Assembly (NCBI GenBank): GCA_963746775.1 | Contig: CAVVCK010000001.1 | Location: 19,050-83,049 of the forward strand | DNA length: 64,000 nucleotides | Direction: 5' to 3' | Source of the DNA: an uncultured bacterium | GTDB lineage: Bacteria; Patescibacteriota; JABMPQ01; CAVVCK01 | Part shown: positions 2,723-48,298 of the stretch, piece by piece | Position numbering within the stretch: the stretch's first letter is position 1 | Layout: each line of letters starts with the position of its first letter | Program-made: the position numbers and the translations under genes | Notes under the pieces: generated by a model | Told to the model about the DNA's origin: nothing | Databases searched by the model: none | What the model saw: the letters and a program-made list of their open reading frames with translations, nothing else

Positions 2723-2873
2723 AATAAAATAACACCTATTATCCTACCCGTGATTGGCCGATAAGACGTAAGGAGGGTTGTCTTACAAAACCTTTCACAG
2801 ATAGGATATTAAGTGCTATTTACTTGAGACACTTTATTATATACAATCAACCTTTAATGTCAATATTTTTTAT

Positions 2874-7204: not shown

Positions 7205-7274
7205 CAAATTTGCATTTTATAGAATAAAAACTATAATTTAAAGTTATAGAACATAAAATTAATAAAGTTTAACT

Positions 7275-9509: not shown

Positions 9510-9539
9510 TTTCAAAAATTATATTATAATTCTTAACTA

Positions 9540-11690: not shown

Positions 11691-11691
11691 A

Positions 11692-11718
11692 AATAACCTA
11701 CTAATAGGTTATTTTTAC
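11692..11718. terminator. Bidirectional hairpin terminator between the convergent genes rel and parB
   Basis: Stem aataacct/aggttatt with T-runs on both strands. Confidence 0.55.
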
Positions 11719-11735
11719 ATTCTTTTTACAAATCA

Positions 11736-12629
11736 TTATATTGAAAAATCGTCTTTTCCAATAATTTTGTCGATAAGATTATATAGTTCTTCATTAGAAT
11801 AAAATTCAATCGAAATCTGTCCTCCTTTTCCTCTTTTTTTTATTTCTACTTTAGTAGATAAATAATCTTTTAATTTTTCTTCTAAACCTAATATCTCTGC
11901 ATTCTTTACTTTTATTTTTCTAGAATGACTCTTTACACTTACTTTTTTAACTTGATTTTCTGTCTCTCTAACAGAAAATTTTTCATTCACTATTCTATTA
12001 AAAAGTTCTTTTTGTAATTTTTCCTCTTGTAATGCTAAAATTGCCTTAGCATGGCCCATGGTTATTTTTTCTTCAGATAAAGCTTCCTGTATTTCACTGG
12101 GTAATTTAAATAATCTTAAATGATTAGTTACCCAACTTCTATTTTTTCCTACTCTATCAGCTACCGTATCTTGTGTTAAATTAAATTCATTAATTAATTT
12201 TTGATATGAAAATGCTTCCTCGATGGGATTGAGATTTTTTCTTTGAATATTTTCCACTAGTGCTAATTCTAACTTTTGCTGTTTAGAAGCAGTTCTAATA
12301 ATTGCTGGAACACTCTTTAATCCTATTAATTTAGATGCCTTCAGCCTTCTCTCTCCGGCAAGCACCTGATATTGATCATCTTCTGTTTCTGTTTTTACTA
12401 ATATTAGTGGTTGCAAAATGCCATGTTCTCTAATTGATTTAGCTAGTCCTTCAATTGGTTCTTGTTCAAAATTTTGTCTAGGTTGATAAGGATTGGGAAT
12501 TATTTTCTCAACATCAACTTCAACTATATTATTTTTAACATCTTCTTTAATTGATTTTACCTGTATCTTTTTAGTGCCTATTGTTTTGGGAATTAGTGAT
12601 TCTAATCCACGACCTAATCTTTTATCCAT
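11736..12629 (-). CDS. parB: Chromosome partitioning protein ParB
   Basis: ParB box LAGERRLKAS. N-terminal ParB/Srx domain plus HTH. Confidence 0.85.
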   Translation of the reverse strand: MDKRLGRGLESLIPKTIGTKKIQVKSIKEDVKNNIVEVDVEKIIPNPYQPRQNFEQEPIEGLAKSIREHGILQPLILVKTETEDDQYQVLAGERRLKASKLIGLKSVPAIIRTASKQQKLELALVENIQRKNLNPIEEAFSYQKLINEFNLTQDTVADRVGKNRSWVTNHLRLFKLPSEIQEALSEEKITMGHAKAILALQEEKLQKELFNRIVNEKFSVRETENQVKKVSVKSHSRKIKVKNAEILGLEEKLKDYLSTKVEIKKRGKGGQISIEFYSNEELYNLIDKIIGKDDFSI

Positions 12630-12648
12630 ATATATTTAAATTAATTTA

Positions 12649-13410
12649 TTATTCAAAACTTACTATTTCCTTGGCTAAATCATTATAAGCCTTAGCCCCA
12701 GTAGAACTTGCAGCATAATCTATAATAGATTTACCAAATGAAGGAGCCTCAGCTAGACTTATATTTCTTGGGATAGATGTTTTAAATACTCTATAAGGAA
12801 AATTTTTTCTGACTTCATTTACTACTTCCTTAGCTAATCTGAGCCTAGCATGGTGCATAGTTAAAACAACTCCTAAAACATGTAAGTCTGGTTGCAAATT
12901 TTTCCAAATCATATTAACTGTATTCAAAAGCTGACCCAACCCTTCTAATGAATAATATTCACATTGCACTGGCACTAAAATATCTCTTGAAGCTACTATA
13001 CCATTTATAGTAATAATTCCAAGGCTTGGCGGGCAATCGATAAATATATAATCATATTTATCTTTAATTAAATTTATCTTTTTCTCTAACAAAAATTCCC
13101 TGCTCTCAGTATTCACAAATTCTATATTAGCTCCAGCTAATGATTCAGTGGCTGGCATAATATCTAAATTATCTATATATGTATGCTTTATAACTTCTGC
13201 TGGTGTTTTTTGATCACATAAAACTTCATAAATTCCATAATCATTTTCACCTAATTTAACACCTATACCGCTAGTAGCATTCCCCTGAGGATCAAAATCT
13301 ACAATTAAAACTTTCTTACCTAGACGCGCCAAAGAAGCAGATAAGTTAACTGTTGTTGTTGTTTTTCCTGTTCCTCCTTTTTGATTTACTACTGATACTA
13401 TTCTATTCAT
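12649..13410 (-). CDS. parA: Chromosome partitioning ATPase ParA/Soj
   Basis: Deviant Walker A NQKGGTGKTTTTVNL. The stop is 17 nt upstream of the parB start, so parAB form an operon. Confidence 0.9.
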   Translation of the reverse strand: MNRIVSVVNQKGGTGKTTTTVNLSASLARLGKKVLIVDFDPQGNATSGIGVKLGENDYGIYEVLCDQKTPAEVIKHTYIDNLDIMPATESLAGANIEFVNTESREFLLEKKINLIKDKYDYIFIDCPPSLGIITINGIVASRDILVPVQCEYYSLEGLGQLLNTVNMIWKNLQPDLHVLGVVLTMHHARLRLAKEVVNEVRKNFPYRVFKTSIPRNISLAEAPSFGKSIIDYAASSTGAKAYNDLAKEIVSFE

Positions 13411-13461
13411 TATTAAAAATTATACTTATTACTACTTACTATTATAAATTATTTTCTTAAA

Positions 13462-13490
13462 TTGACAAGATAGCTTTTTAAAACTATAAT
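13462..13490 (+). promoter_or_regulatory. Consensus sigma70-type promoter upstream of tRNA-Leu
   Basis: TTGACA (13462-13467), a 17-bp spacer, then TATAAT (13485-13490). About 65 nt upstream of the tRNA 5' end. Confidence 0.5.
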
Positions 13491-13555
13491 TTTTATACTC
13501 ATATCGGTTCTAGACGATTAAAAGTATAAATTATTAATTATTTTATTATTAATTA

Positions 13556-13639
13556 GCCGCGGTGGCGGAATTGGCAGACGCGCTGGATTCAAAATCCAGT
13601 GGAGGCAACTTCATGAGGGTTCAACTCCCTCCCGCGGCA
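13556..13639 (+). tRNA. tRNA-Leu (anticodon CAA), long variable arm, CCA not encoded
   Basis: Hand-folded cloverleaf. Acceptor GCCGCGG/CCGCGGC. Anticodon stem CTGGA/TCCAG with loop TTCAAAA, giving anticodon CAA. Long variable arm. T-arm GGTTCAACTCC. Confidence 0.85.
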
Positions 13640-13646
13640 TATTAAA

Positions 13647-13676
13647 ACACAGGAATTTAACTTCCTGTGTTTTTTA
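13647..13676. terminator. Rho-independent terminator after tRNA-Leu; also lies downstream of glyA on the opposite strand
   Basis: 9-bp stem acacaggaa/ttcctgtgt, 6-nt loop, then TTTTT. Confidence 0.7.
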
Positions 13677-13694
13677 TTGTTTTCTGTAAAAAAA

Positions 13695-14942
13695 CTAATC
13701 AACTCCCGGCATACTATATTGCAAACAAAATTTTTCTACTTCTTTCTTAATTTCTTTTATTTTTTTATCATTATTAATATTTTCAACCACTTCATTCGTC
13801 CAATAAGCCATTTTTTTCATTTCTTCTTCTCGCATACCACGAGATGTCATTGCAGGTGTACCCAATCTAATCCCTGAGGGATCAAAAGGAGATCTTTTAT
13901 CAAATGGAACAGTATTAAAATTACATATTATATTTGCCTGAGCTAATGCTTTAGCAGTTTCTTTGCCTGAAATTTTCTTGCTACTCATATCTATAAGCAA
14001 AAGATGATTATCCGTGCCTCCAGTAACCAAATCAAAGCCATAATTTCCTAGTTCTTCTGCTAAAACTTTAGCATTTTTCACAATCTGCTTCGCATACTCC
14101 TTAAAATTAACTTCCCTAGCCTCTTTCAGGGCAACAGCTATAGCAGCCGTTGTATGATTATGGGGACCTCCTTGAAGCCCTGGAAAAACCGCTTTGTCTA
14201 TTTGATCAGCAATTTCTTTTTTGCATAAAATCATAGCTCCTCTTGGACCACGCAATGATTTATGGGTAGTAGTAGTCACTACATCTGCATAAGGAATTGG
14301 GCTAGGATGCTCTCCAGTAGCAACTAAACCAGCTATATGAGCTATATCAGCCATTAAATATGCACCAACACTATCAGCTATCTCTCTAAACTTTTTGAAA
14401 TCAATTAATCGCGGATAAGCCGTAGCTCCGCAAACAATTATTTTAGGCTTTTCTTCTTTAGCAAGCTTAGCAATCTCTACATAATCTAATAACTTCGTCT
14501 TTTCATTAACTTTATATTGAACTGATTCAAAAAACTTTGAAGTAAATGACACTTTAAATCCATGAGTTAAATGACCACCATGGAATAAATTCATACCCAT
14601 TATTTTCTCTCCAGGCTTAATTAAAGCACAATAGGCTGCTAAGTTAGCCGGACTACCAGAATAAGGCTGCACATTAGCATGATCAGCTCCAAAGAGCTCA
14701 CTAGCCCTATCACATGCTATCTCCTCTATCTGATCAATATACTCTTGTCCTTCATAATAACGCTTCCTGGCATACCCTTCAGAATATTTATTAGTTAAAA
14801 TTGAACCAGTAGCTTCTAGAACTGCTTTGGATACATAATTCTCAGATGGTATTAGTCTAATACTTTTTCTTTGTCTCTCGAGTTCACCCTGAATTAAATT
14901 AAATATTTTTTTGTCTTCTTTTTCTAAAGATGTTATTTTCAT
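13695..14942 (-). CDS. glyA: Serine hydroxymethyltransferase
   Basis: LIPSENYVS..., the PLP-lysine region TTTTHKSLRGPRG, and 415 aa are all typical of SHMT. Confidence 0.9.
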   Translation of the reverse strand: MKITSLEKEDKKIFNLIQGELERQRKSIRLIPSENYVSKAVLEATGSILTNKYSEGYARKRYYEGQEYIDQIEEIACDRASELFGADHANVQPYSGSPANLAAYCALIKPGEKIMGMNLFHGGHLTHGFKVSFTSKFFESVQYKVNEKTKLLDYVEIAKLAKEEKPKIIVCGATAYPRLIDFKKFREIADSVGAYLMADIAHIAGLVATGEHPSPIPYADVVTTTTHKSLRGPRGAMILCKKEIADQIDKAVFPGLQGGPHNHTTAAIAVALKEAREVNFKEYAKQIVKNAKVLAEELGNYGFDLVTGGTDNHLLLIDMSSKKISGKETAKALAQANIICNFNTVPFDKRSPFDPSGIRLGTPAMTSRGMREEEMKKMAYWTNEVVENINNDKKIKEIKKEVEKFCLQYSMPGVD

Positions 14943-14979
14943 GTAATTAAAAAATTAAAATTTATAATAGAGTTCTTAT

Positions 14980-15618
14980 TTAATTTTTTAAATAATTTAC
15001 AACATCTTTATATTTTATTGGACCAGATCTAATTAATTTTATTTTTTTATCACTTAAATCAATGATGGTTGATGATCTATTTTTAGACAAAATTCCAATA
15101 TCAACAACCAAATCTGGCTTATTTTTCTTCTTTTTGTATTGTCTAAAAATCGCTTCAGCTGAATATGAATCTTTTTCTCCTGATATATTAGCACTTGTAG
15201 CTGAAATTGGAAAATCTATTTTTTCCATCACTTTTTCTATAATCTTACTTTTCGGCATTCTTAGCCCAACCGAATTTCCTCCAGCTAATAAAATAGTAGG
15301 TAATTTCTCCTTCTTTTGCGCAATTATTGTCAATCTCCCTGGTAAAAATTTATTGAACAATTTTTTTGTTCTTTTATCTATTACACTGTACTTCTTAGCC
15401 TGAGCAATATTTTTTACAATAATAGATAATGGTTTTTTCTTATCTCTGTCTTTTATTCTATAAATCTTATTTATAGCCTTTGAATCTAGAGCATTTACAG
15501 CCATTCCATAAGAAGTGTCTGTAGGCAAAACAACTACTTTCCCCCTTTTTAAGTAATCCACAATATAATTAATCTTTTTTTTATCAATTCTTTCAGGATC
15601 TATTTTAATTACTTCCAT
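14980..15618 (-). CDS. tsaC: L-threonylcarbamoyladenylate synthase (TsaC/YrdC/Sua5 family)
   Basis: YrdC-fold signatures: LPTDTSYG, KxR, and SATSANISG. Confidence 0.75.
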   Translation of the reverse strand: MEVIKIDPERIDKKKINYIVDYLKRGKVVVLPTDTSYGMAVNALDSKAINKIYRIKDRDKKKPLSIIVKNIAQAKKYSVIDKRTKKLFNKFLPGRLTIIAQKKEKLPTILLAGGNSVGLRMPKSKIIEKVMEKIDFPISATSANISGEKDSYSAEAIFRQYKKKKNKPDLVVDIGILSKNRSSTIIDLSDKKIKLIRSGPIKYKDVVNYLKN

Positions 15619-16333
15619 AATTATATTCTTTCTCTATAAAATTTTCTAAATTTTCTATATCTTCTGGTTTTCCAAAATCTTTCCAATAATCTTCTAAATT
15701 CTTTACTTTAACCTTCTTTTCTTTAGCTAATATATTTACTGCATCTGTTATTTCATACTCTCCTCGCTCAGACTTACCTACTTTGTTTATTGCTTCAAAT
15801 ATGTCCGCAGTAAATTTAAAAAGATTTATATTAACTAGATTACCATAAAATTCTTTCGGTTTTTCAATAATTTTAGTTACAAAGTCTCCTTCTATATTTA
15901 AAACACCATATAACTCAGGATTTTTACTTTCAAAGCCTGCTACATAACAAAAATCATCCTCTATTCTAAAAGCTTCTAAATCTTTTGAAGAATATAAATT
16001 ATCACCATTTACAGAAACAAAATCTTCATTTCCAATCAAATCTTTTGCGCTTAAAATAGGACAAACTGTACCGTATCTTTCTTCTCCTAATTTTTCAAAC
16101 TGATTAACTGTTTGAATACTACTATCATAATCTTTTAAAAATTCCTCGACCTTTTCGCTTTTATAACCAGTTACAACAATAATCTCAGAAAAACCTGCCA
16201 ATTTTATATTTTCTAATAAATAATACAAAAAGGGTTTTCCTCTAACCTCAAGTAGTGGTTTGGGAATATCTTTAGTTAAATCCCCCATTCTAGTTCCCCT
16301 ACCTGCTGTTGATATAACAATTTTATTAATCAT
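15605..16333 (-). CDS. Sugar-1-phosphate nucleotidyltransferase (NTP_transferase fold)
   Basis: N-terminal G-x-G-T-R motif STAGRGTRMGDLTKDIPKPLL. Its 3' end overlaps the tsaC start. Confidence 0.7.
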   Translation of the reverse strand: MINKIVISTAGRGTRMGDLTKDIPKPLLEVRGKPFLYYLLENIKLAGFSEIIVVTGYKSEKVEEFLKDYDSSIQTVNQFEKLGEERYGTVCPILSAKDLIGNEDFVSVNGDNLYSSKDLEAFRIEDDFCYVAGFESKNPELYGVLNIEGDFVTKIIEKPKEFYGNLVNINLFKFTADIFEAINKVGKSERGEYEITDAVNILAKEKKVKVKNLEDYWKDFGKPEDIENLENFIEKEYNYGSN

Positions 16334-16335
16334 AG

Positions 16336-19300
16336 CTATATATTTAGACCTTCAGCTAATATATTTAATAATCTGTCTTTTACTAAAATTAGTTTATAAA
16401 CTTTTTTACCCTCTAAATACTTTTCAATTTTGCCTTTTTTTTGGGCCATTTGATAAATTTCTGAATCAGTTAATCCACGTTTTGCTATTATTTTATCTCT
16501 AAATTTGCCATTAATTTGAATAATTATAGTAACCTTATCTTCTTTTATCAATTTATCATTATATTCAGGCCATTTTTCTTTAAAAATGCTTTCTTTATTT
16601 TTATCCGCTGAAGTTTTAACGGAAGCGGAGCCCAATTTTTCCCATAATTCTTCTGTAATATGAGGTGCAAAAGGCGACAAAATTAATAAAAACTTCTCTA
16701 AAGTATATTTTGTAATTTCCTTATTTTCCAATAATTTATTTAATAAAACCATCATGGAAGAAATGGCTGTATTAAAATTAAAACTTTCAATATCTTCAGT
16801 TACTTTTTTAATTGTTTTATGAAGTAACTTTTTAATTTCTAAATTTTCATCTTTTGAACTAGGGGTTTGATTTTCTTCATATAAATTCCAAACCCTATCT
16901 AAAAATCTCCTAATTCCTTTAATGCTCTGCGTATCCCAAGGCTTAACCTCTTCAAAAGACCCCATAAACATTTCATACATTCTTAAAGTATCCGCTCCAT
17001 ATTCTACCACCACTTCATCAGGATTAATTACATTGCCTCTAGACTTGCTCATTTTTTGATGATCTTCTCCTAAAATCATCCCTTGATTTTTTAATTTCTG
17101 GAAAGGTTCATCATGATCTACTTTAGAATTTATTTTTATAAATCCTAAATCTTTTAAGGCTTTATAGAAAAATCTAGCGTAAATCAAATGCAAACAAGCA
17201 TGTTCTGCTCCCCCAACATATAAATCAACTGGCATCCACTGCTTTAATTTTTTATTGTCAGCAAATTTTTCTTTATTTTTAGGATCGCAATATCTTAAAT
17301 AATACCAAGAAGAACAAACAAAAGTATCCATAGTATCTACTTCTCTTTTTACACCCTCAGAAGCTCCACATTTTGGACATTTAACCTTATGAAAGCTTTT
17401 AGAATCTTTCAAGGGAGATTCGCCAGTAGGCTTAAAATCAACATCTTCCGGTAATTTTACCGGCAATTGTTCCTCCGGAACCGGAACCTCGCCACATTTA
17501 TCACAATAGATTATAGGAATAGGCGCTCCCCAATAGCGCTGTCTAGATATTAACCAATCTCTTAACTTGTAATTAGTAGTAATTTTTCCTCCTACTTTTT
17601 CCGTAATTTTCTTCTTCGCCTCCATAGAATCCATACTATTAAACTCATCTGAATTAGTTAAATTTCCAGTACCTGCATAAACCTTCTCTCCATTTAACAA
17701 AATATTCATATACCATTCATGACTATTCAAATTAATATATTTTTCTAATTTATCTTTTTCTATCCATTCTTCTTTATGGTGTCTAACATGCTCTTCTTCT
17801 GGCTCTACATACTCCCCATCTGCTAATTCTACATAATACCCCTCTAGAATTGTGTCCCTATTTACCCCCTTATGCATAGCATAAAATTTAGTAGCAATCT
17901 TACCTCCTAATTTTTTTATAGACTTTATATTTTGATAACCAGATTCTTCCTTCATTTCCCTTATAGCTGCTTCTTCATAACTTTCTCCATTCTTCACCCC
18001 ACCAATAACAAAAGATTTCCAGCCATATTTGACCCAATCAAGACAATAATATTTATCTTCTTGCCAATGTTTAATTATAACAATTACATTATTTCTTTTT
18101 ACAGTCTCTTTGTCCTCTCTTGGTAGATCTTTTTCAAAATTTGTTTTAAGAAATGGAATTATAACTTGTTTAATTGGTATGTTATATTTTTTAGCAAATT
18201 CAAAATCCCTTTCATCGTGAGCTGGTACCGCCATTATTGCTCCTGTTCCATAGGAAGATAGAACATAATCAGCTATATAGATTGGTATTTCTTCTTCATT
18301 TGCTGGATTAATAGCCTTAACGCCTTTAATTTGAACACCCGTCTTTTCTTTTTGCAACTCTGTTCGTTCTAAATCAGACTTACCTTTTGCTTGCTCCTTA
18401 TATTTATAGATTTCTTCTAAATTCTCAATTCTAGATTCTAAATTCTTAATTAATTCATATTCAGGAGCTAAAACCATATAGGTAGCACCATATAGCGTAT
18501 CTGCTCTGGTAGTAAATATTTTTATATTTGGAATAATATTTTTTAAAATAATGGGTTCTTTTTCACCATTAAAATGACTACCTTGAGTCTCTGATTCAAT
18601 AAGTTCAGCATTTAATTCCCTGGATAAAGTTTTCCCTTCTTCCCTGGGCACTGCATGATCATTAAGAGAGCTTAATATTTTAATAAAGCCAGCTTTTTTC
18701 TTTATATCTTCATAATCATAATCCCAATTGAATTTATCTTTAAATGGTCTATCTATATCTTTAAATTTAGCCTTTGTAAAACCTCCTGCCAAAACCAACC
18801 TAGTAATATTATGAGGTAATTTTTCTACTACTTTCATAGCCACTACTGCCCCTAAACTATGACCAAATAAAATAGTACTTTCACTAAATTTAATATTTTT
18901 TAAGACATAATTGACTTGTTCTTCTTCTGTGGGATTATCAGAATTAGGCATATCGGGTACATCAACTTTGTAACCTCTATTTTCTAGTTCCTTTTTTAAC
19001 CAAGGGAAAAAATTGCTTTTAGAATTACTACCAAAACCATGTAACAAAACAAAATGAAAATCAGATTTTACTTCGAAATCTATTTCAGAACCTTCTGATC
19101 TTCCTATCCACTCCCTCTGCATTAATTTAATAGGCTCCGGCCAATCCATATTGTCTAAATCATCAAGCAATCTTTGTGCATATTTTGTAGTTTTAAAAAA
19201 CCATTGCTTTAAATCTTTTTGAATAACTTCATTCTTACAACGTTCACATTTTCCATTTATTACTTGTTCATTAGCAAGTACAGTCTTGCAAGATTCACAC

Positions 19301-19773
19301 CAATTAACTGCTGCCTTCTTTTTGTAGGCCAAACCATTTTTATATAATTGCAAAAATATCCATTGCGTCCATTTATAATATTCTGGATCAGAAGTAGCTA
19401 TTTCTCTGTCCCAATCATAACTAAAACCAAGAGACTTTATCTGTCTTCTGAATGTTTTAATACTATCTCCTGTTGTTTTTTTAGGATGTACTCCTGTTTT
19501 TATAGCATAATTTTCAGCTGGCAATCCAAAAGCGTCCCAACCCATTGGATGCATTACTTCTCTGCCCTTCATCCTCATATATCGAGAAAAAATATCTGTA
19601 GCTGTATAGCCTTCTGGATGACCAACGTGAAGTCCAGCAGCTGAAGGATAAGGAAACATATCTAGACAATAAAATTTCTCTTTTTTAGAATTATCATCAG
19701 CTTTATATAATTCTTCTTCCTCCCATTTCTTTTGCCATTTTTTCTCTATTTTCTTTGGATTATACTTTCCCAT
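16336..19773 (-). CDS. leuS: Leucyl-tRNA synthetase with two inserted accessory domains (alpha/beta serine hydrolase and Nudix)
   Basis: HVGH (HIGH) and KMSKS motifs. Editing-domain motifs TTRADTLYGATYMVLAPE and GTGAIMAVPAHDERD. Extra domain at about aa 235-412 carries GHSLG (a GxSxG motif; RBBP9/YdeN-like serine hydrolase). Extra domain at about aa 540-697 carries the Nudix box GGVKNGESYEEAAIREMKEESG. Total 1145 aa, versus about 800-870 for a typical LeuRS. Confidence 0.9.
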   Translation of the reverse strand: MGKYNPKKIEKKWQKKWEEEELYKADDNSKKEKFYCLDMFPYPSAAGLHVGHPEGYTATDIFSRYMRMKGREVMHPMGWDAFGLPAENYAIKTGVHPKKTTGDSIKTFRRQIKSLGFSYDWDREIATSDPEYYKWTQWIFLQLYKNGLAYKKKAAVNWCESCKTVLANEQVINGKCERCKNEVIQKDLKQWFFKTTKYAQRLLDDLDNMDWPEPIKLMQREWIGRSEGSEIDFEVKSDFHFVLLHGFGSNSKSNFFPWLKKELENRGYKVDVPDMPNSDNPTEEEQVNYVLKNIKFSESTILFGHSLGAVVAMKVVEKLPHNITRLVLAGGFTKAKFKDIDRPFKDKFNWDYDYEDIKKKAGFIKILSSLNDHAVPREEGKTLSRELNAELIESETQGSHFNGEKEPIILKNIIPNIKIFTTRADTLYGATYMVLAPEYELIKNLESRIENLEEIYKYKEQAKGKSDLERTELQKEKTGVQIKGVKAINPANEEEIPIYIADYVLSSYGTGAIMAVPAHDERDFEFAKKYNIPIKQVIIPFLKTNFEKDLPREDKETVKRNNVIVIIKHWQEDKYYCLDWVKYGWKSFVIGGVKNGESYEEAAIREMKEESGYQNIKSIKKLGGKIATKFYAMHKGVNRDTILEGYYVELADGEYVEPEEEHVRHHKEEWIEKDKLEKYINLNSHEWYMNILLNGEKVYAGTGNLTNSDEFNSMDSMEAKKKITEKVGGKITTNYKLRDWLISRQRYWGAPIPIIYCDKCGEVPVPEEQLPVKLPEDVDFKPTGESPLKDSKSFHKVKCPKCGASEGVKREVDTMDTFVCSSWYYLRYCDPKNKEKFADNKKLKQWMPVDLYVGGAEHACLHLIYARFFYKALKDLGFIKINSKVDHDEPFQKLKNQGMILGEDHQKMSKSRGNVINPDEVVVEYGADTLRMYEMFMGSFEEVKPWDTQSIKGIRRFLDRVWNLYEENQTPSSKDENLEIKKLLHKTIKKVTEDIESFNFNTAISSMMVLLNKLLENKEITKYTLEKFLLILSPFAPHITEELWEKLGSASVKTSADKNKESIFKEKWPEYNDKLIKEDKVTIIIQINGKFRDKIIAKRGLTDSEIYQMAQKKGKIEKYLEGKKVYKLILVKDRLLNILAEGLNI

Positions 19774-38755: not shown

Positions 38756-38780
38756 GATTTATTTACCTGGCTTTAGTCAG
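38756..38780. repeat. REP-A element copy (GATTTATTTACCTGGCTTTAGTCAG; palindromic core ctgRctttagYcag)
   Basis: Matches the copies at 39386-39489, 40868-40926 and 48143-48165, the last in opposite orientation. Confidence 0.65.
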
Positions 38781-39307
38781 CTCTTACCAGTTTTAAACTT
38801 AGAGCTATCTTCTAAATCTAATTTTATAACATTTTTAACTATTTCCACAGTAAATTCAAGTCCATGTTCTCTAACAGCTTGTGAAAAACTAGAATATGGC
38901 GATTTATTTAATTCGCTAAAATCCTGCACTTCTTTATATTTTAGCAAATTACCAATAATATATCCCCAAACATTATAGAACATTCTTTCTTCTAAAATAA
39001 TTTTTGTCCAATAATTATCCCATATCCTACGATTTATGCCATCTATTTTGTTTAACACAAATGAACTTCCACCGTTTATTACCCTGATAATATCTTTTAA
39101 CCTATTTTTATCTTCTAAATAAAATAATAAGTGATAATGATCATAAGCTATACTATAAGCATAGATAGAAATCTTAAATTTATTTTTTATATTATTTAAC
39201 TGCTTTAAAATAATATTTTTCTTTTTATTAGTATTAAAATATTTCTCATGATTAAAAGTTGGTGTGGTTAAAAAATAGTAAGAATTATTTAGAATAACTC
39301 GTGGCAT
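38777..39307 (-). mobile_element. IS200/IS605-like Y1 (HuH) transposase, REP-associated tyrosine transposase type (RAYT-1)
   Basis: HuH motif DHYHLLFYL. Downstream region with Tyr-containing WDNYWTKII. 176 aa. Flanked on both sides by REP-A palindromes. Confidence 0.6.
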
Positions 39308-39320: not shown

Positions 39321-39489
39321 CCGGCTAAAGCCGGGGAAATTACTTTTTTAAAAATTCATTAAAGCGATTTGTTTTATATAAAAATGATTTATTCACCTGA
39401 CTTTAGTCAGCCTATTCTTAAAAGTGATTTATTTACCTAACTTTAGTCAGCCTATTCTTAAAAGTGATTTATTTACCTGACTTTAGTCA
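39321..39489. repeat. REP-A cluster: hairpin ccggctaaagccgg plus 3 tandem ~39-bp units
   Basis: Units at 39386-39410, 39425-39449 and 39465-39489 (gatttattYacctRactttagtcag), each followed by the identical cctattcttaaaagt. Confidence 0.7.
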
Positions 39490-40811: not shown

Positions 40812-40926
40812 AGCCGGGAAAATAACTTTTTAAAACTTACTAATACAACTTACTTAATATAAAAAGTAATTTATTTACCTGGCTTTAGTCAGATTAAAAA
40901 TGTTTTATTGGCCTGGCTTTAGCCAG
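40804..40926. repeat. REP-A cluster (ccggctaaagccgg; aatttatttacctggctttagtcag; cctggctttagccagc)
   Basis: Three palindromic copies of the same family, immediately 3' of the glycosyltransferase. Confidence 0.65.
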
Positions 40927-40951
40927 CTTTTTATTTATTATTTCTAAAAAA

Positions 40952-40976: not shown

Positions 40977-41063
40977 TTGAAACTAATTATATTAATTGGG
41001 AAGCCCACTTTCAAACGCTAATCCAGGACGGATCAACTAGGTGGGCAATTTTTCGGTAGGTTA

Positions 41064-41810
41064 TTACTCACGAGAGATGGGCGGGGTGTGCGGGGTCCAG
41101 CAGATGGAATAGCAGCCCCGATATTCCCTCTCATCGAAGCGTGGTTGTGCCAAGTATCCCTCAATTCCGCTGGAAAGACCAGCCTCCCATTCCTCGCAAG
41201 TAGGGGTTGGAGTCTCAAAATCCCAGCAGTCACCCTCGAACAACAGGGCGACGCCAGTCACGTATTCCAGAGGGCATTCACATGTTCCCGAAAACGCGAA
41301 ACCTCTCCAACCAGGCTCACTATGAGACTCATCGTCCCAAGGAAACCCGGCCAGACGGTCCCAGTCTTCACATTGTGCCTCTGAGGAAGAATCGCAGATG
41401 GGCAAATCGCTATCGGAGTCAGTGTCGTCATCAAAGTCGAAATCAGAATCGGCGTCACCGTCCGTGTCTCCGTCTACATCACCGCCACCATCTCCATCGC
41501 TATCCAAATCAGAGTCGCTGTCGGAGTCACCATCACCATCCACTTCCATATCACTGTCCGAGTCCGTATCACCGTCAGAATCACTGCCTCCATCGCTATC
41601 CATATCTCCGTCAATATCCGAGTCGCTATCGGAGTCAACATCGCTATCGCTGTCTACGTCTCCATCGACATCGCTATCGACATCCGCATCCGCATCTGCA
41701 TCATTATTTCGTGATGCATGTCCACATGCTGCCACGACCGAAGCCGCGACAACCAACATGGTCAAAAACACTACGCCCCAAAGGGCCTTCTCTTGCTGAT
41801 GCTTTCGCAT
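41064..41810 (-). CDS. GC-rich secreted lipoprotein A: conserved leader, poly-Asp/Ser/Gly acidic repeat, C-terminal 6-Cys domain
   Basis: The probable start is the second Met (41810), with RBS gaggaggaaggg upstream. Signal peptide plus lipobox (VVAACG). Repeats (DSDVDGDVDSDSD)n. The Cys-rich C-terminal domain is paralogous to that of 43142..43894. About 53% GC by eye. Confidence 0.5.
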   Translation of the reverse strand: MRKHQQEKALWGVVFLTMLVVAASVVAACGHASRNNDADADADVDSDVDGDVDSDSDVDSDSDSDIDGDMDSDGGSDSDGDTDSDSDMEVDGDGDSDSDSDLDSDGDGGGDVDGDTDGDADSDFDFDDDTDSDSDLPICDSSSEAQCEDWDRLAGFPWDDESHSEPGWRGFAFSGTCECPLEYVTGVALLFEGDCWDFETPTPTCEEWEAGLSSGIEGYLAQPRFDEREYRGCYSICWTPHTPPISRE

Positions 41811-41944
41811 CCCTTCCTCCTCAGCCCCGGAGGGCTTCATCTATAACCTACTACGAAAAGATAAAGAGCTTTCCATAGTAATTTAAGCCTTAATTTATTA
41901 TAAAATAACGATTTAAAGCCTAAATTCCTACTTTAAGATATTAA

Positions 41945-41973
41945 ATTGTGTCAATTTATAATATATTTGTCAA
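41945..41973 (-). promoter_or_regulatory. Minus-strand sigma70-like promoter of lipoprotein A (conserved module TATTGACAAATAT)
   Basis: On the minus strand: TTGACA (41968-41973), a 17-bp spacer, then CACAAT (41945-41950). The -35 module is the same as at 44063 and 46119. Confidence 0.4.
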
Positions 41974-42015
41974 TATTTTTAAGTGCTCTATATTTTAGTT
42001 CACTACTATTATAGC

Positions 42016-42747
42016 CTAAATATCCTCATCACTATAATCCAATATAGGATAATCCTCGAAACTAGAATTTATCCATTCTCTCCCCTTTTTCCTAATCCAA
42101 GTATTAAAGCTAGAAAAATTATAAAGATTTAGTTCTTCTATATTTTTTACTTTTTTGTGTTTAATAGAGTTGTTATGTATATAGTTGAAATGCTTATAGA
42201 AATCTTCTTCATCGCGAATGCAATGGTCCCAATATTGATACCATATTTTACGTTTTGAAGTATTATTTATTTTATTTAAAATCCTGGAACTATCTTTATG
42301 TATTTTTCTAATAAATTCTACTAGTTGATATTTAGACGCGAAATTCGTTTCACTCATTTCGCTATTCCTTAATTCATCACCTCTAGGATTAGCAAATTGA
42401 CTGGCCTGCCCGCCGGAGAGGCGGGAAGGAAATTTGCGTTCTGCAGCTGACGCGAAATTCACTCCGTTCATTTCGCTATTCCTTAAATCACTTTCTTTAG
42501 GATTAGCAAATTGAGCGAAGCGAAATTTGCGCTTTATATGAAATAATAAATGATAATGATTATCCATTATTACCCAAGCATAGATTTTTATATTAAATCT
42601 TTGAATAGATTTAATTAGTACGCTTTTTAATACTTCTTTTCTATTATCAGTATTAAAATAACAAATCTCTTCGTGCGTTCTAGAAGTTAAAAAATAAATC
42701 TGATTATCTCTATAAATATGTGGCGGACGATGTTTTTCTTTTGGCAT
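42016..42747 (-). mobile_element. IS200-like HuH tyrosine transposase (RAYT-2) carrying an in-frame insertion of its own REP-B palindromes
   Basis: HuH motif DNHYHLLFH. C-terminal WYQYWDHCIRDEEDFYKHFNYIHNN is RAYT-like. A roughly 70-aa segment (aa 72-140, nt 42328-42534) is encoded by two tandem REP-B units (FAQFANP appears twice). Possibly a pseudogene. Confidence 0.55.
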
Positions 42748-42756
42748 ATTTTTGTT

Positions 42757-42960
42757 TTTAGGATTAGCAAATTAAGTATAACAAAATTTGTGCTCTTTAA
42801 AATTACTAGGATTAGCAAATTGAGCTATTTATCCGCCAAAGAGGAGGAATGCGAAATTTGCGCTTTGTAAATTACCAGGATTAGCAAATTGACTGGAAGG
42901 AAATTTGCGCTACGTGTAGTAAGCGCGAAATTCCCCATTAGGGTCATTTCGCTAGTCCTG
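42757..42960. repeat. REP-B array: 3 units of AGGATTAGCAAATTGA...GGAAATTTGCGCT
   Basis: Palindromic arms GCAAATT/AATTTGC. Further copies at 42330-42545 (2 units), 45955-46070, and cores at 7205 and 36735. Confidence 0.65.
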
Positions 42961-43141
42961 ATTTTATTATTATATCAAAAAAACAGCCTATTTGCTGCTT
43001 ATGTGAAATGCTTAACTAATTGATGTGGAATTGTGAGCCCGCGTAAGATTGGATGTCTCTTACGCGGGTGTTCAAGAATGAACATGGGCTCCAGCTACCC
43101 GGGGTTACACTGGATTTTGGTAGGATTCGTTTTTTTGACGA

Positions 43142-43894
43142 CTAGAACCACTCGGGGTGGCAGTCACCGCCAGGGGGGAGGTCGCAGTAGGCGACGTTCA
43201 AGCACTCCCCGCCGGTCCTGCCGAGTGCCCGTTCCCCAGCGATCGCGTCCACCGACCCGTACGCAGCCTCAGCTTCGACGCAAGCGTCTCCGCTGTCTCC
43301 AGGACCCCAGTTCGTCGGAACCCAACATCCGTCGGGGAAACGGATAATGATCTGGGTTCCACCGGGAGTGACCTCGACAGCACCGGGACACCCTCCCCAA
43401 GCACCTGCTGCCCGCGGATGATCGAAAGCTTGACATTGCGAAATGTCGGCTTCCTCACACATGGGCTCGGGCTCGATCGGGGTCGTATCACCGTCGGAAT
43501 CGCCATCGCTGTCGGAGTCCGCGTCGCCGTCGCCGCCGTTGAGGTTGTTCTCGACGTTGACGTCGACATCGACGTTCACGTCGATCTCGGCACAATCCGC
43601 GACCCCGTTGCCGTCCTCGTCGGCGAAGCCCTCGTCGATCTGCCCGTCGCAGTCGTCGTCGATGTTGTTGCAAATCTCCGGAGCGCCGGGATAGACCGAG
43701 GGGTTGCTGTCGTTGCAGTCGCGGCCACCGTCGCCGACGGCCTCGAAGCTGTCCTGGTCGAGATCGTACACGTACGTCTCGATCGTATCCGGCCCGCAGC
43801 CGGTGTTGAAGGTCACCACGACCAGAAGGGTCGCGATGAGCGTTGCGGTTTCGATCAACTTGCCCCGAAGGGCCTTCTCGTGATGCTCTTGCAT
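43142..43894 (-). CDS. GC-rich secreted lipoprotein B: conserved leader, MopE-like Cys-rich metal-binding motif, acidic repeat, 6-Cys C-terminal domain
   Basis: Leader MQEHHEKALRG, compared with A's MRKHQQEKALWG. Lipobox FNTGCG. Motif RDCNDSNPSVYPGAPEICNNIDDDCDGQIDE. (DVNVDVDV)(DGDADSDSDGDSDGD) repeats. C-terminus aligns with A. About 65% GC by eye. Confidence 0.55.
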   Translation of the reverse strand: MQEHHEKALRGKLIETATLIATLLVVVTFNTGCGPDTIETYVYDLDQDSFEAVGDGGRDCNDSNPSVYPGAPEICNNIDDDCDGQIDEGFADEDGNGVADCAEIDVNVDVDVNVENNLNGGDGDADSDSDGDSDGDTTPIEPEPMCEEADISQCQAFDHPRAAGAWGGCPGAVEVTPGGTQIIIRFPDGCWVPTNWGPGDSGDACVEAEAAYGSVDAIAGERALGRTGGECLNVAYCDLPPGGDCHPEWF

Positions 43895-44044
43895 CTCTCT
43901 TCTCCTTGCGGCCCCTTGGGTCCGCCTTGTTTCCTCAAAAAAATCCTAGAAGGTACACCTTAAATTATTATTTATAATATTTTAAGGTGTAACTTCATTT
44001 AATTGCTATTTTTAAAGTACTACACTATTTTATTTTAACACTAT

Positions 44045-44073
44045 ATTATATCACTTTTTACTATATTTGTCAA
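44045..44073 (-). promoter_or_regulatory. Minus-strand consensus sigma70 promoter of lipoprotein B
   Basis: On the minus strand: TTGACA (44068-44073), a 17-bp spacer, then TATAAT (44045-44050). Confidence 0.55.
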
Positions 44074-44291
44074 TAGATTTCTTAATAATTCTTTATACCA
44101 GATACTAGCTTCTAAATACTATATTCTTGCCTTTTAGCAGCTCATATTTAGCATAAATCCCCTCCCTTATTATCTTGTTCTTGTGTTATCTTGTTATTTT
44201 GATTTAAGGAGGGTATTTTGCGTCAGCACAAGTATGATCTTTTTAATTTGATCAACTGTGCTGACGCAGGTGGGATTTTTGAGGTGGGAAA

Positions 44292-44624
44292 TTACCGGTG
44301 AGTGACAACCGTATGGTCGCCGTCAGACGCCTCCACGGCGCCCCATGTGCCGAGACCGACACCGGCACCGAGAGCTACGCTCCCGAAGCCGATGAGCAGC
44401 CCACAGGCCACTCGGTTCCGGTGACACCAGTCCGGCTGGGTTTCCACGGTCGTCGGACCTTCCACGTCGTCGGGAAGGGGGGTCGAGGTGACCTCGCCGT
44501 CCTCGTCCAGACCAAACTGAACGGGACGATCCTCGCGCACCACCTGAAAGGTGGACACGCCGCAACCGACCGAGCCGAACACCACGACCATCGCGATCGC
44601 CGCCAACTTCGTCATGTCTCTCAT
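44292..44624 (-). CDS. GC-rich small lipoprotein C
   Basis: Likely start MRDMTKL, with RBS aaggagaaggaaag upstream. Signal peptide plus lipobox FGSVGCG. About 60% GC by eye. The first Met at 44696 is less likely. Confidence 0.4.
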   Translation of the reverse strand: MRDMTKLAAIAMVVVFGSVGCGVSTFQVVREDRPVQFGLDEDGEVTSTPLPDDVEGPTTVETQPDWCHRNRVACGLLIGFGSVALGAGVGLGTWGAVEASDGDHTVVTHR

Positions 44625-44974
44625 CTTTCCTTCTCCTTCGTTCCTTGACCCTGCCATGACCCCCCTCTTTCTCAAGAGGAGGTCGGTTATGACCACCCTA
44701 AGGGGGGCCGTGTTTCCTTACCTCAAAATGTGAAATGTACTAACCTTGAAGGTATACCTAGAATTATTATATTTATAACAACTTAAGGCATAACTTCCCT
44801 TGTTCGCCGAAGCCTAATGGCGTAGGCGGATATTTTCTTCCTAATCTCTACTCCCTACTAACTACTAACTACTCACTAATAAAGAATTGGAAGCACCCGC
44901 GCATCAGTAGACATGGTAGGAACGAACCGAAGTTCGTCTATGTCATACTATAATGATGCGCGGGGCTTTTGAGG

Positions 44975-45655
44975 CTAGGGGCAGACTCGAGTATGCTGAC
45001 CACCGAAGTGAGTCAGCTCGATGCACCGTCGTCCGCGAGGACGGGGCGGCGCTTCTGCCACCTTCGTGGGGGTGGGGGGAACGGTGGGCTCCTCGGCGAC
45101 CGGGGTGGGCGGATTCGGCAGCCTTGGCGCAGGAGGCGTCTTGTTCGGGCTTGGGGCCTTCGCATGATCGTCCTCGTCGCAGTCGCCGCACTCTTCGATA
45201 CGGGTCAGAATTTCTTCCGCCCGGTCATCGATGTGTCCATTGACCGCTCCGACTCCTCTGTCGACCTCACTCGAGACGTGACCCTTGATGTCCGTCGCGA
45301 CACCGTCGGTGTGGGAATTGACGGCGTTGACCGTCTTTCCCAACTCCGACCGGAGCTGACCGAGGGTCACGCCGGTCGGCTGTCCCTTGACGGGTGCCGG
45401 CGCGGGGTTCGTCGGCGGGGGCGGCCGGTCGGGGGTCAGCGTGTTGTCCGCCTCCTGCGCTTCCGCGTCGCCACCGAACAGCCCGAGGGCCCAAGCTCCT
45501 CCGAATCCAAGCCCCACCAGAAGCACAACCATTACGATCGCCCACTTCCAGTGGGTCCTCACGTTGGCCGCGGCCCTGCGGATGCGCCCGGGCTGCGGTT
45601 CTTCGGTCACCGTCTCTGTCTCGGTCCCTTCTTCGGTCCCTGTCTCGTCGGCCAT
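44975..45655 (-). CDS. GC-rich single-pass membrane protein D with Pro-rich extracytoplasmic region (anti-sigma-factor-like topology)
   Basis: RBS aaaggagg. Acidic N-terminus. TM helix WAIVMVVLLVGLGFGGAWALGLF. Pro-rich segments PDRPPPPTNPAPAP and PPAPRLPNPPTP. Confidence 0.4.
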   Translation of the reverse strand: MADETGTEEGTETETVTEEPQPGRIRRAAANVRTHWKWAIVMVVLLVGLGFGGAWALGLFGGDAEAQEADNTLTPDRPPPPTNPAPAPVKGQPTGVTLGQLRSELGKTVNAVNSHTDGVATDIKGHVSSEVDRGVGAVNGHIDDRAEEILTRIEECGDCDEDDHAKAPSPNKTPPAPRLPNPPTPVAEEPTVPPTPTKVAEAPPRPRGRRCIELTHFGGQHTRVCP

Positions 45656-45954
45656 TTCTGGCCTCCTTTCTTTCTATCGTTTCCAACAATGAACTTCCAT
45701 CTTTCTTTCGATTGATTGAAGTCCGCGATTTTAAGAAACAATATTTATATTATTCCCTAAAAGCGAAACTCCAACCGTGTCCGCCAAAGCCTAATGGCGT
45801 AGGCGGATTTTTCATATAGCCTCAATTTATAAAATGTGCTCTCTTTAAAAAACAAATATCGTTTTATTAATCTTTCTTAATTAAGCTTTATTTGTCTTTT
45901 AATTATATGGATTTTAATGTGCAAGTTCTCACTAGCTCATTTCCTTAATCCTTA

Positions 45955-46070
45955 TCCCAGGATTAGCAAATTGACTGGCTTGCCCGCCGTCAGAGGCGGG
46001 AAGGAAATTTGCGTTTCGTACAGTAGGCGCGAAATTCGCTTCACTCATTTCGCTATTCCTTGATTCCAAA
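45955..46070. repeat. REP-B composite unit (isolated copy)
   Basis: caggattagcaaattgactggcttgcccgccgtcagaggcgggaaggaaatttgcg...gcgaaattcgcttcactcatttcgc matches the units at 42330-42545. Confidence 0.6.
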
Positions 46071-46100
46071 TTCCTAATTCCGTATTTTCAATAACACCGC

Positions 46101-46129
46101 AGTATAGCATATTGTAACATATTTGTCAA
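46101..46129 (-). promoter_or_regulatory. Minus-strand sigma70-like promoter upstream of protein D
   Basis: On the minus strand: TTGACA (46124-46129), a 17-bp spacer, then TATACT (46101-46106). Confidence 0.45.
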
Positions 46130-46430
46130 TACTATTTACCCACCTTTTTATATACTAAAAACAAGGCTTTTTTTGGGCTTAAATTAGACTACTCCAGATT
46201 AGACTTTTCTAAAAACATTGTTTTTATATAAAATATCTTTTTGCAAAATATTCGTAACAGCCTTACGGCTGTTAATCTTGATAATATTATTTTTTAGGAC
46301 TACCACTCGTAATGATGTTATTGTTTTAATAAAATTCTACATTCTAATGGATTTTTGCCCGCGCCAGAACTTATTAAGTTAAGACGCGGGCTATGAGATG
46401 CAGCGAACTAGTCGCTGCTTTGAGGTAGGA

Positions 46431-47420
46431 TCATGGAGGTGCTGCCCGGTAGGCTATCCCTATCTTGTCTTGCACCACGGCTTGACCGAGGTGCTCTGGA
46501 GTATCAGGTGGAATTTCTGAAATGTACGTATTCCACCCTGCTCCACAGACCGATAGGAAGAGATAGCGATCTCCCCTGCCGCGCAGCTCAGCGTACTGCC
46601 AGCCTCTCCATTGCCCCCGGCTTATCAACTGCCCAGGGATAAATGTCGGACTGACGTCTTCGCCAAAAACTGCTACGCAGGAGAAATACTCACTTCTCCA
46701 CCAAAGCCCCCGACCCCTACGGAAAATATTATCTACCGAGCCTTGATAGGTGGGGCTTTTCAACACCAGATTCCGTGGAGGTGGCGAACGCGGCTCAATC
46801 CGCTTGGAAGCCTGCTTTTTCGCCTTTGTCGCCTGAATCGGCCGACGCACCACCTTGCTGTGCGACAAACCCAGAGACTGAAACCACGGAGAAGGAGAAG
46901 GCACAGAAATCCAAATAATATAACCCAAACCAGCCAAAATCGATACTAGGCAAAAACCGACGAAAACACGCAATTTCCAAGGCGAGGGCTGCCAGCCCAT
47001 ATAATCAATCTCGATTTCTTTTTCAGAAGAGTCATCTTCACTATCTGAATCAGAACCAGTCTTGACGTCGCCATGGTCTTCTTCAAAATCAGCACTATTG
47101 ACACTCTCTTCCGGAGAGCTACCATCACTCTGATTTTCCGAGTTGGCTCCCCCCTTGCCATCTTGACTTTCTCCAATCCCGATTATTGACTTCCAAGTTA
47201 AATCCTCGGGGTCAATTCCGGAATATCCCGGCACTGTGCTATCCCCTCTCAGGGGACTTTCCGAACATATTCTCACAGAACGGGGAGGCTCCGGCGGCCT
47301 TAAGATATGACGAGAAGGAGGAACAAGCCCCCTTAACTCAGACATACAATATCCACAATTCGTACAAAAAGCATATTCTACCTCATGTCCACACTTCGGA
47401 CACTTTTTCATCTCACTCAT
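46431..47420 (-). CDS. Zinc-ribbon membrane protein E
   Basis: N-terminal zinc ribbon CPKCGHEVEYAFCTNCGYC. Acidic S/D/E segment. One TM helix VFVGFCLVSILAGLGYIIWISV. C-terminal domain of unknown function. About 50% GC by eye. Confidence 0.4.
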   Translation of the reverse strand: MSEMKKCPKCGHEVEYAFCTNCGYCMSELRGLVPPSRHILRPPEPPRSVRICSESPLRGDSTVPGYSGIDPEDLTWKSIIGIGESQDGKGGANSENQSDGSSPEESVNSADFEEDHGDVKTGSDSDSEDDSSEKEIEIDYMGWQPSPWKLRVFVGFCLVSILAGLGYIIWISVPSPSPWFQSLGLSHSKVVRRPIQATKAKKQASKRIEPRSPPPRNLVLKSPTYQGSVDNIFRRGRGLWWRSEYFSCVAVFGEDVSPTFIPGQLISRGQWRGWQYAELRGRGDRYLFLSVCGAGWNTYISEIPPDTPEHLGQAVVQDKIGIAYRAAPP

Positions 47421-47883
47421 GACTATCCCCTTCCCATCTCCATGGAGGTTTTGTTGTTTGCAAATTAATAAAAATACCTAATTATTCACAATAAGCTGCA
47501 AACAACTTTTTTACTCACCAATTCCAATTCTACATTATAAATTATACATTTTGCATTCATTTATCTACCTCAATTTTAAAAAAGAACGCTCTTATCCTAT
47601 GACATATAACCAAAGTCTTCGAATACATACACCTTTTACTTTAAATTAAAGAATAAAAATTTTATTCAAAAATGTTTAATAACTTTTGACTAAGGCTGTA
47701 TTTTTAAGATAAAAGAACATTATATTTAATCATAAAATAATAATATGTCAAACCCAAAAAGGTTAAAAACAGCTGTCTATTTAAAATCTTATAAAATTTA
47801 AAAAACGGTGGATAATTTATCTTTGATTCAAATTAAATTTTACATTAAAATAATAAGCACCTCTAAAAAATAACTACAAAAAA

Positions 47884-48138
47884 ATGGTACAAAATAAAAA
47901 GAAAACTAAGCAAAAAACTCAAAAAGAAATAGCTCTAGAATTAATAAAATTAATGCCCGATAGCATTGAATGGAGTGATATAAACAGTATTTTCTATGAG
48001 AAAGGAAGATTAGAGAAAACATTGAATGATGCTTTTGAAAAAGGAATTTTAACTAAAAAAGAAGCCCTGAAGCGCTATAATATGTTAGATAAGACAATAA
48101 TTACCGATTGGCTTAAAAATAAGTATGGTTTTGAATAA
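47884..48138 (+). CDS. Small hypothetical protein (84 aa)
   Basis: The ORF has native AT-rich codon usage. No recognisable domain. Confidence 0.3.
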   Translation: MVQNKKKTKQKTQKEIALELIKLMPDSIEWSDINSIFYEKGRLEKTLNDAFEKGILTKKEALKRYNMLDKTIITDWLKNKYGFE

Positions 48139-48298
48139 GAAGCTGGCTAAAGCCAGGTAAATAAAAACACTTTTTACCACGTACGAAATTTCAAGAATAC
48201 TTATAAAATTTTACATAATCCACAAAATTTCGTACGTGGTTTACTAAAAATAAAAAATGTGCTAACTTATAAATATTATACAAAAATAATCAATTTCT

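Follow-up and report, generated by a model that had tools for sequence, protein, structure and literature searches.

The window analysed here is a 64,000-nucleotide stretch from an uncultured member of the Patescibacteria (assembly GCA_963746775.1, contig CAVVCK010000001.1, positions 19,050 to 83,049), and we are concerned with the promoter-like sequences that precede a group of GC-rich genes within it. The host chromosome has a GC content of about 30% and, in the window, carries housekeeping genes for Mfd, TopA, RelA/SpoT, LeuRS, IleRS and MetRS. At 41030-47420 lies an island of five GC-rich open reading frames (ORFs A to E), all on the minus strand, accompanied by a gene for a REP-associated tyrosine transposase (RAYT) and by repetitive extragenic palindrome (REP) elements. 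GC content at third codon positions (GC3) is given for two of the ORFs below.

41064-41810, minus strand: gene A, predicted lipoprotein of 54% GC with Asp-rich repeats and a Cys-rich C-terminal domain; paralogue of B
43142-43894, minus strand: gene B, predicted lipoprotein of 63% GC (GC3 0.77) with a MopE metal-binding motif (PF11617, 49 bits)
44292-44624, minus strand: gene C, small predicted lipoprotein of 65% GC, starting MRDMTKL...
44975-45655, minus strand: gene D, membrane-anchored Pro-rich orphan protein, 67% GC (GC3 0.76)
46431-47420, minus strand: gene E, zinc-ribbon membrane protein, 50% GC

Gene B also carries the Asp-rich repeats and the Cys-rich C-terminal domain. Paralogy is limited to A and B, genes C, D and E being unrelated to this pair. 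Signal peptides or lipoboxes were identified in A, B and C by direct reading of the sequence.

The 13-mer ATATTTGTCAATA (plus strand; TATTGACAAATAT when read on the minus strand) occurs in the island as three exact copies, at 41963-41975, 44063-44075 and 46119-46131, exactly where a sequence-only reading of this DNA had placed them. That reading had described each copy as a -35 hexamer followed by a 17-bp spacer and a -10 hexamer (TATAAT for B, TATACT for D and CACAAT for A), all three facing these genes. A consensus scan of the minus strand bore this out: all copies belong to minus-strand promoter sequences that are intergenic, lie within the GC-rich island (~41.0-47.4 kb) and are directed at GC-rich ORFs. 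Absent from the earlier account were a fourth promoter (PE), the lack of such a promoter at gene C and the long distance from the third promoter (P3) to gene D. The four predicted promoters are the following.

41945-41975, minus strand: PA, with -35 TTGACA at 41968-41973, a 17-nt spacer ending in TGa and -10 CACAAT at 41945-41950; contains 13-mer copy 1; predicted start ~41938; assigned to gene A (ATG at 41810, ~128 nt downstream)
44045-44075, minus strand: PB, with -35 TTGACA at 44068-44073, a 17-nt spacer ending in TGa and -10 TATAAT at 44045-44050; 12/12 consensus match plus extended -10; predicted start ~44038; assigned to gene B (ATG at 43894, ~144 nt downstream)
46101-46131, minus strand: P3 (PD), with -35 TTGACA at 46124-46129, a 17-nt spacer ending in TGc and -10 TATACT at 46101-46106; predicted start ~46094; ATG of gene D at 45655, ~439 nt downstream, with REP elements between
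47724-47751, minus strand: PE, with TTGACA, a 16-nt spacer ending in TGa and -10 TTAAAT, then ATAATGTT; ~300 nt upstream of gene E

Three exact copies of the 13-mer compare with 0.024 expected from base composition over 64 kb and both strands (P for at least three, ~2e-6). No further copy was found in the window, even with one mismatch allowed, nor in 2.07 Mb of other loci; the sole additional copy lies in L001, which covers the window's own region in a second assembly. All four promoters match the -35 consensus at 6/6 positions, with a spacer of 17 bp in PA, PB and P3 and of 16 bp in PE. The -10 hexamers of the three 13-mer promoters all keep A at position 2 and T at position 6, and a TG one base upstream of the -10 is present in these three as well as in seven of nine aligned island promoters overall. 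The alignment of these nine, anchored on the -35, yields a common signature composed of an A-tract, TTGACAA, TGn, tAtAnT and N4-TGTT. Searched as TTGACA-N13-15-TGn-nAnnnT-N3-5-TGTT, it gave 8 matches in 137 kb of island-bearing loci, a set in which some regions are represented by two assemblies, and no match in the 2.07 Mb of other loci. Between paralogous promoters, likeness extends only from about -40 to +12 (z-scores, z = 2.8-6.5).

Among the 55 window sites scoring at least 10/12 against a sigma-70-like consensus, PB ranked first, P3 second and PA about sixth. The third rank was held by a perfect TTGACA-17-TATAAT at 13462-13490 (plus strand), ~65 nt upstream of tRNA-Leu(CAA); this is the only 12/12 backbone promoter in the window and can serve as an internal standard of what a strong native promoter looks like. 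A perfect -35 in the best upstream site was found for 3/6 island units versus 1/25 backbone units (Fisher p = 0.016); for overall match scores, the difference between island and backbone units was not significant (Mann-Whitney p = 0.26). Elsewhere in the window, a TTGACA-16-TATAAT at 2835-2863 (minus strand) lies within the 189-nt gap before mfd, in the opposite orientation to that gene, and points into plus-strand ORF 2130-2684 from its 3' end. An antisense promoter, a small-RNA promoter and a chance match are all conceivable.

Two pairs of contigs, L005/L006 and L002/L003, show synteny with the window, their islands being flanked by the same glycosyltransferase, radical-SAM and HtrA genes, and the gene order E-D-C-B-RAYT-A is identical in the window, L005 and L002 (islands compared over 41030-47420, 6400-12600 and 8300-17600, respectively). 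In L005, all three promoters occur at orthologous positions and with the same -10 variants, TATACT for D (7579, with TG), TATAAT for B (9841, TTGACA-17-TATAAT) and CACAAT for A (11718, TTGACA-17-CACAAT, with TG). The L002 contig carries orthologues of PA (12781, TTGACA-17-CATAAT, TG) and P3 (8026, TATAGT, TG), and its extra large MopE gene has a TTGACA-17-TAGAGT of its own. Exact 13-nt identity is confined to the window's genome, the common core being TTGACAAATA in L005 and TTGACAA in L002.

Conservation was particularly clear at P3 and PE. At P3, the stretch ATATGCTATA(C/G)T is unchanged in the three lineages and the downstream run GCGGTGTTATTGAAAATA is common to the window and L005, where the 25 nt directly after the -10 are identical. 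At PE, the block TTTGACA..TTTATGATTAAATATA.TGT is invariant over ~40 nt in four lineages (the window, L005 at 5795, L002 at 6663 and L165 at 2573). In alignments of orthologous regions, the invariant blocks are the -35, the TG and the -10, amid diverged intergenic DNA, and comparison of orthologous promoter-leader regions gave strong similarity (z = 8-69). Between the window and L005, the island proteins share only 36-63% identity, and four-fold degenerate sites approach saturation both in the island and in the backbone. Since the promoters have kept their positions despite this divergence, they are old and under purifying selection, and not recent repeats.

One detail of the flanks departs from this pattern of orthology. 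In L005, CCC stands just 5' of the -35 in both P3 (7576-7578) and PB (9838-9840), at the position occupied by (G/C/A)TA in the window and in L002. Such a parallel change points either to gene conversion or to a binding factor with which the promoters co-evolve. Concerted evolution of the promoters through gene conversion was nevertheless rejected: the shared CCC is its sole support, and the similarity of paralogues within a genome (z = 6.2-6.5) is not appreciably above that between genomes (z = 5.2-5.8).

Downstream of the promoters, the computationally predicted leaders (128-439 nt) of ORFs A to D have a common layout: a long AU-rich stem-loop comes first, a small GC hairpin next, and the Shine-Dalgarno (SD) sequence GGAGG last. 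The features of these leaders are listed below, together with the REP repeats and bacterial interspersed mosaic elements (BIME) that separate P3 from D.

41873-41928, minus strand: gene A leader hairpin, AU-rich stem-loop of ~14 bp, z = -4.2
43949-43996, minus strand: gene B leader hairpin, 16-bp stem with one conserved U.C mismatch, z = -5.9
44748-44797, minus strand: gene C leader hairpin, homologous to the B hairpin, z = -4.1; nearly identical in L005 and L002
45714-45774, minus strand: gene D leader hairpin, ~26 predicted pairs just upstream of the SD, z = -7.0
45959-46091, minus strand: REP/BIME-type repeats of families D2, D6, D7, D9 and D10, within the P3-to-D leader and not part of the promoter

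All 12 hairpins (A to D in three lineages) fold as one long stem-loop, 11 of them with z <= -3.5. The orthologues of the A hairpin differ in this respect, with z = -4.5 in L005 and a weak fold in L002 (z = -1.7), while the counterparts of the D hairpin are stable in both L005 (z = -6.7) and L002 (z = -9.2) with differing sequences. Folding of whole leaders gave z = -4.2 for B and -5.5 for D. The B leader is strongly similar to the region upstream of gene C (z = 13.7), and in the alignment of B and C leaders from three lineages, compensatory changes were observed in two of the 19 pairs. The leader hairpins are kept in structure, with sequences differing. Searching Rfam at the gathering score and at E <= 1 returned no leader family and only a spurious microRNA match on a REP hairpin. 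The REP elements after P3 are present in L005 and absent in L002.

In the B leader, the hairpin is followed by a U-run, the small GC hairpin (43908-43926) and the SD. An attenuator or terminator formed by the leader hairpin and U-run was considered and rejected, as the U-run adjoins the hairpin only in the window's B leader and is displaced or missing in the remaining leaders. A further motif of these leaders, (T)GTACAT(T) followed after 8-14 nt by TTGAGG(T/C)A, is seen past the hairpin or REP region and ahead of the SD in genes C and D (minus-strand sites at 44700-44745 and 45820-45850 in the window, 7828-7850 and 9010-9040 in L005 and 8190-8225 in L002) and is partially present before B and E. 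Its role could be that of a second promoter, of a processing site or of a site for protein binding.

Taken together, these results suggest, with a probability of roughly 0.78, that the three motifs are functional housekeeping promoters of the sigma-70/sigma-A type which, along with PE, head the transcription units of a clade-specific surface-protein island. Direct observations are the motif with its rarity, rank and orientation, the retention of the promoters at orthologous positions, and the conservation of the leader hairpins. The holoenzyme would recognise the TTGACA -35, the 17-bp spacer and the TGn extended -10, with a -10 that keeps A-11 and T-7, and the upstream A-tract could act as an UP element. 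Transcription would start ~7 nt past the -10, in or near the conserved TGTT, and give a messenger RNA (mRNA) whose leader would carry in turn the long AU-rich stem-loop, the small GC hairpin and the strong GGAGG SD, each ORF being followed by a putative GC-rich terminator hairpin. Stabilisation or processing of the transcript is the most likely role of the leader hairpin. Gene C has a leader hairpin, and no TTGACA promoter was found between D and C; it is therefore probably transcribed from P3 as part of a D-C transcript. The sequence-only reading's proposal of a shared and probably strong expression module, with promoters that are very probably real, is supported by the rank of the sites, their orthologous conservation, the features beyond the hexamers and the structured leaders. 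As promoters, these are of a known kind, the sigma-70 extended -10 type with a structured leader, and their likeness reflects shared constraint and probably shared ancestry (for the A/B paralogues) rather than a mobile cassette unit.

Several points weigh against this interpretation. The -10 of PA, CACAAT, is off consensus at positions 1 and 3, though kept in L005, and no orthologue of PB was found in L002, so that one promoter per gene is not universal. P3 lies ~440 nt from gene D with REPs in between, and another target is also possible. The leader hairpins start ~40 nt past the predicted start, an unusual place for a 5' stabiliser if the RNA is not processed, and the hairpin segments were picked by eye, which somewhat inflates their z-scores. 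The phylogenetic depth is small, as the island is known from three to four lineages only, and the source genome is covered over 64 kb, the stretch to which the frequency of the signature in this genome refers. Start sites, promoter strength, co-transcription of D and C and the role of the hairpin are all predictions from the sequence.

The best surviving alternative, although we consider it unlikely, is that the sequence beyond the hexamers (TA-TTGACA-AATAT, with TGTT at the start) forms the site of a common regulator, making the island a co-regulated regulon. In the three 13-mer promoters, identity indeed continues beyond the -35 for 2 nt on its upstream side and 5 nt on its downstream side, N4-TGTT follows the -10 in most island promoters and not at tRNA-Leu, and the parallel CCC 5' of the -35 in P3 and PB of L005 (TA in the window and L002) might mark a co-evolving site. 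However, the core shows no operator-like dyad symmetry or direct repeat, the flanks differ between orthologues (TA vs CCC, AATAT vs ATAAA), the island contains no regulator gene, and a flank alphabet limited to A and T inflates chance identity.

Somewhat less probable still is that P3 mainly makes a non-coding, REP-containing RNA, gene D being transcribed from a proximal promoter. The distance of ~439 nt to the D start codon and the 25 identical nucleotides after the -10 would agree with such an RNA, as would the highly structured P3-to-D leader (z = -5.5 for the 445 nt folded), and a conserved block closer to D, (G/T)(C/T)ACATTTTATAAATTGAGGCTA, holds -10-like sequences. Against it, no terminator-like site was found on the minus strand between P3 and D, the distance in L002 is ~280 nt with no REP, and the RNA matched no Rfam family.

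The sequence-only reading had itself proposed that the promoter could be the unit duplicated with each cassette or the target into which cassettes insert, and this did not hold up. That the promoter is part of a mobile cassette carried along with each GC-rich gene, or an integron-like docking site for foreign cassettes, is now very improbable, even if several features are suggestive: the genes share one orientation, GC-rich segments run from ~30 nt before each ATG to the hairpin after the stop with AT-rich spacers between, the paralogues A and B have similar promoters (z = 6.5), and a RAYT gene and REP elements lie within the island. Gene order and content are nevertheless the same in three lineages despite near-saturated synonymous divergence. 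No integron integrase or other site-specific recombinase was found by Pfam and NCBIfam searches of the island ORFs or in the syntenic gene tables, the REP-associated Y1 transposase being the only enzyme of this sort. The 3' hairpins (e.g. 44896-44964 and 43040-43075) have CCCGCG.../...CGCGGG stems without the RYYYAAC/GTTRRRY cores of attC sites, as judged by direct reading, no attC covariance model having been run. Past about +12, the leaders are gene-specific and orthologous and are not copies of each other; only A and B are paralogous, so that at most one promoter pair could be similar through gene duplication. Moreover, the 13-mer is not part of any REP family, and gene C has no promoter copy. 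An origin as the outward promoter of an insertion sequence (IS), a miniature inverted-repeat transposable element (MITE) or a REP was likewise rejected, since similarity between the promoter copies is restricted to about -40 to +12 and REP families D2, D4, D6 and D7 are separate sequences at variable positions.

Functionless chance matches in AT-rich intergenic DNA can practically be discarded: promoter-like hexamer pairs are frequent at 30% GC (38 vs 24 expected in a 10-kb scan), but the rarity of the 13-mer, the conservation of the promoter sites at orthologous positions down to the odd CACAAT and the co-orientation of all three sites with downstream genes do not fit.

The base composition of the island calls for separate consideration. 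GC3 is 0.72-0.77 in B, C and D versus 0.18-0.25 in backbone genes, and in L002 the island stands at 0.55-0.60 for a backbone of ~0.2. GC at four-fold degenerate sites (GC4) is 0.7-0.9 in the window's island and 0.6-0.75 in that of L005 versus 0.1-0.4 in backbone genes. The GC-rich segments extend from ~30 nt before each ATG to the GC-rich hairpin after the stop, and the promoter-bearing spacers are AT-rich. As this high GC has been kept despite near-saturated synonymous divergence, some force seems to maintain it within the ORFs of this reduced genome of 30% GC, and an old transfer undergoing simple amelioration would not easily explain it. The maintained GC-richness is the more intriguing, unexplained feature, compared with the promoters themselves. 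Selection acting on the stability or the translation of the mRNA is one candidate force, and biased gene conversion between genes for surface proteins is another. We put forward only tentatively, as a rather doubtful proposal, a two-part arrangement in which AT-rich host-native promoters and leaders have co-evolved for expression with ORFs held GC-rich by such a force.

Concerning the 3' ends, a long composite GC-rich hairpin follows gene D at 44896-44964, with an outer stem CCCGCGCATCA.../...TGATGCGCGGG and an inner stem-loop. It is present in the window and in L002, and L005 has near-identical copies after both D and C (8850-8925 and 9505-9580). This structure is probably a terminator or a 3' stabiliser.

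The island proteins have few relatives. Full-length relatives of protein B were found in only two other lineages, and its AlphaFold2 model, built from a six-sequence alignment, was of low confidence (pLDDT 41, pTM 0.19). Gene D gave four weak partial matches among 1.84 billion representative proteins. For gene A, NCBIfam returned only low-complexity SD-repeat-like matches far below the cut-off, a protein search with its isolated C-terminal domain gave no match, and a scan of genome contigs with the alignment of its orthologues found no relatives. In the six-sequence alignment of the A/B family, no stretch was sufficiently conserved to serve as a query. In a scan of metagenome contigs with gene A, all 80 loci matched through the low-complexity Asp-rich repeat alone, and tblastn over these loci revealed no true island homologues. 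The closest species representatives for the flanking glycosyltransferase were metagenome-assembled genomes (MAGs) of Parcubacteria/Patescibacteria, at 56% identity at best, and the MAG loci matched in this way contained no island homologues by tblastn.

Other features of the window deserve mention. The RAYT gene (42016-42747, minus strand; NF047646, 86.5 bits) contains in-frame REP copies inside its own ORF at 42335-42514, translated as ...FAQFANPKESDLRNSEMNGVNFAS...; one such insert is present in L005 and none in L002. A second RAYT gene lies at 38777-39307. The island is flanked by a 33-nt inverted pair (40903-40935 and 48134-48166) with 91% complementarity, each arm being a CTGGCTTTAGCCAG hairpin of a type also present at 39397, 39477 and 40804; these hairpins are probably a bidirectional terminator or a REP family, rather than transposon ends. 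Further away, 16336-19773 (minus strand) encodes a leucyl-tRNA synthetase of 1145 aa with an unusual architecture, in which an alpha/beta serine-hydrolase domain (residues 240-403) and a NUDIX domain (583-682) are inserted.

Patescibacteria (the candidate phyla radiation, CPR) are almost all uncultivated. We know of no promoters that have been mapped in them, and our literature search on CPR promoters or on GC-rich islands in CPR found nothing. Judged from the sites described here, this Patescibacteria lineage uses the canonical TTGACA-17-TGnTATAAT grammar, and the island offers candidate strong native promoter-leader parts for a CPR lineage. The promoters also mark a few surface lipoproteins, characterised by Asp-rich and Cys-rich sequence and, in B, by a MopE motif, as probably highly expressed, which would make these proteins candidates for host attachment in an episymbiont. 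The persistence of GC in the island may exemplify a base composition that is maintained locally.

Canonical sigma-70/sigma-A promoters with an extended -10 (TGn) are known from E. coli and from AT-rich Gram-positive bacteria. The island promoters resemble them in the TTGACA, the 17-bp spacer, the TGn at -15/-14, the A-11 and T-7 and the A-rich upstream tract; they are intergenic and co-oriented with their gene, and the same grammar is seen at the window's tRNA-Leu promoter. There is no difference in kind, the extras of the island being TTGACAA, N4-TGTT, the conserved CACAAT and the Patescibacteria host. Integron arrays, with their Pc promoter and attC sites, share with the island short co-oriented genes that are foreign in composition, with an imperfect hairpin behind each of them. 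In contrast to such arrays, the island lacks IntI, attI and attC cores, its transcription units have their own promoters and long AT-rich spacers, and it is static across lineages.

Surface-layer and other surface-protein genes such as Lactobacillus slpA have been described in a review as having consensus promoters and a long 5' untranslated region with a stabilising structure (PMC3666127, citing Boot et al. 1996 and Narita et al. 2006). The island is similar in its near-consensus promoters, long stem-loop leaders, strong SD, strong predicted terminators and predicted secreted or surface products. It differs in that the hairpin is not at the predicted 5' end, and a likeness in mRNA half-life or abundance is not implied. 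Island GC3 is also 0.75 versus 0.2 for the genome, whereas slp genes use host-preferred codons, and the island products are small lipoproteins and not demonstrated lattice formers. Finally, in the tandem lipoprotein paralogues (lpl) of S. aureus, the intergenic region is described as co-evolving with the ends of the flanking ORFs (PMC2568036). The tandem lipoprotein paralogues A and B are comparable, the promoter core and the 5' end encoding the signal peptide (MR/QxHxxKALRG) having been kept together. Unlike the lpl cluster, the island has only two paralogues, with C, D and E unrelated to them, and shows no sign of recombination shuffling.

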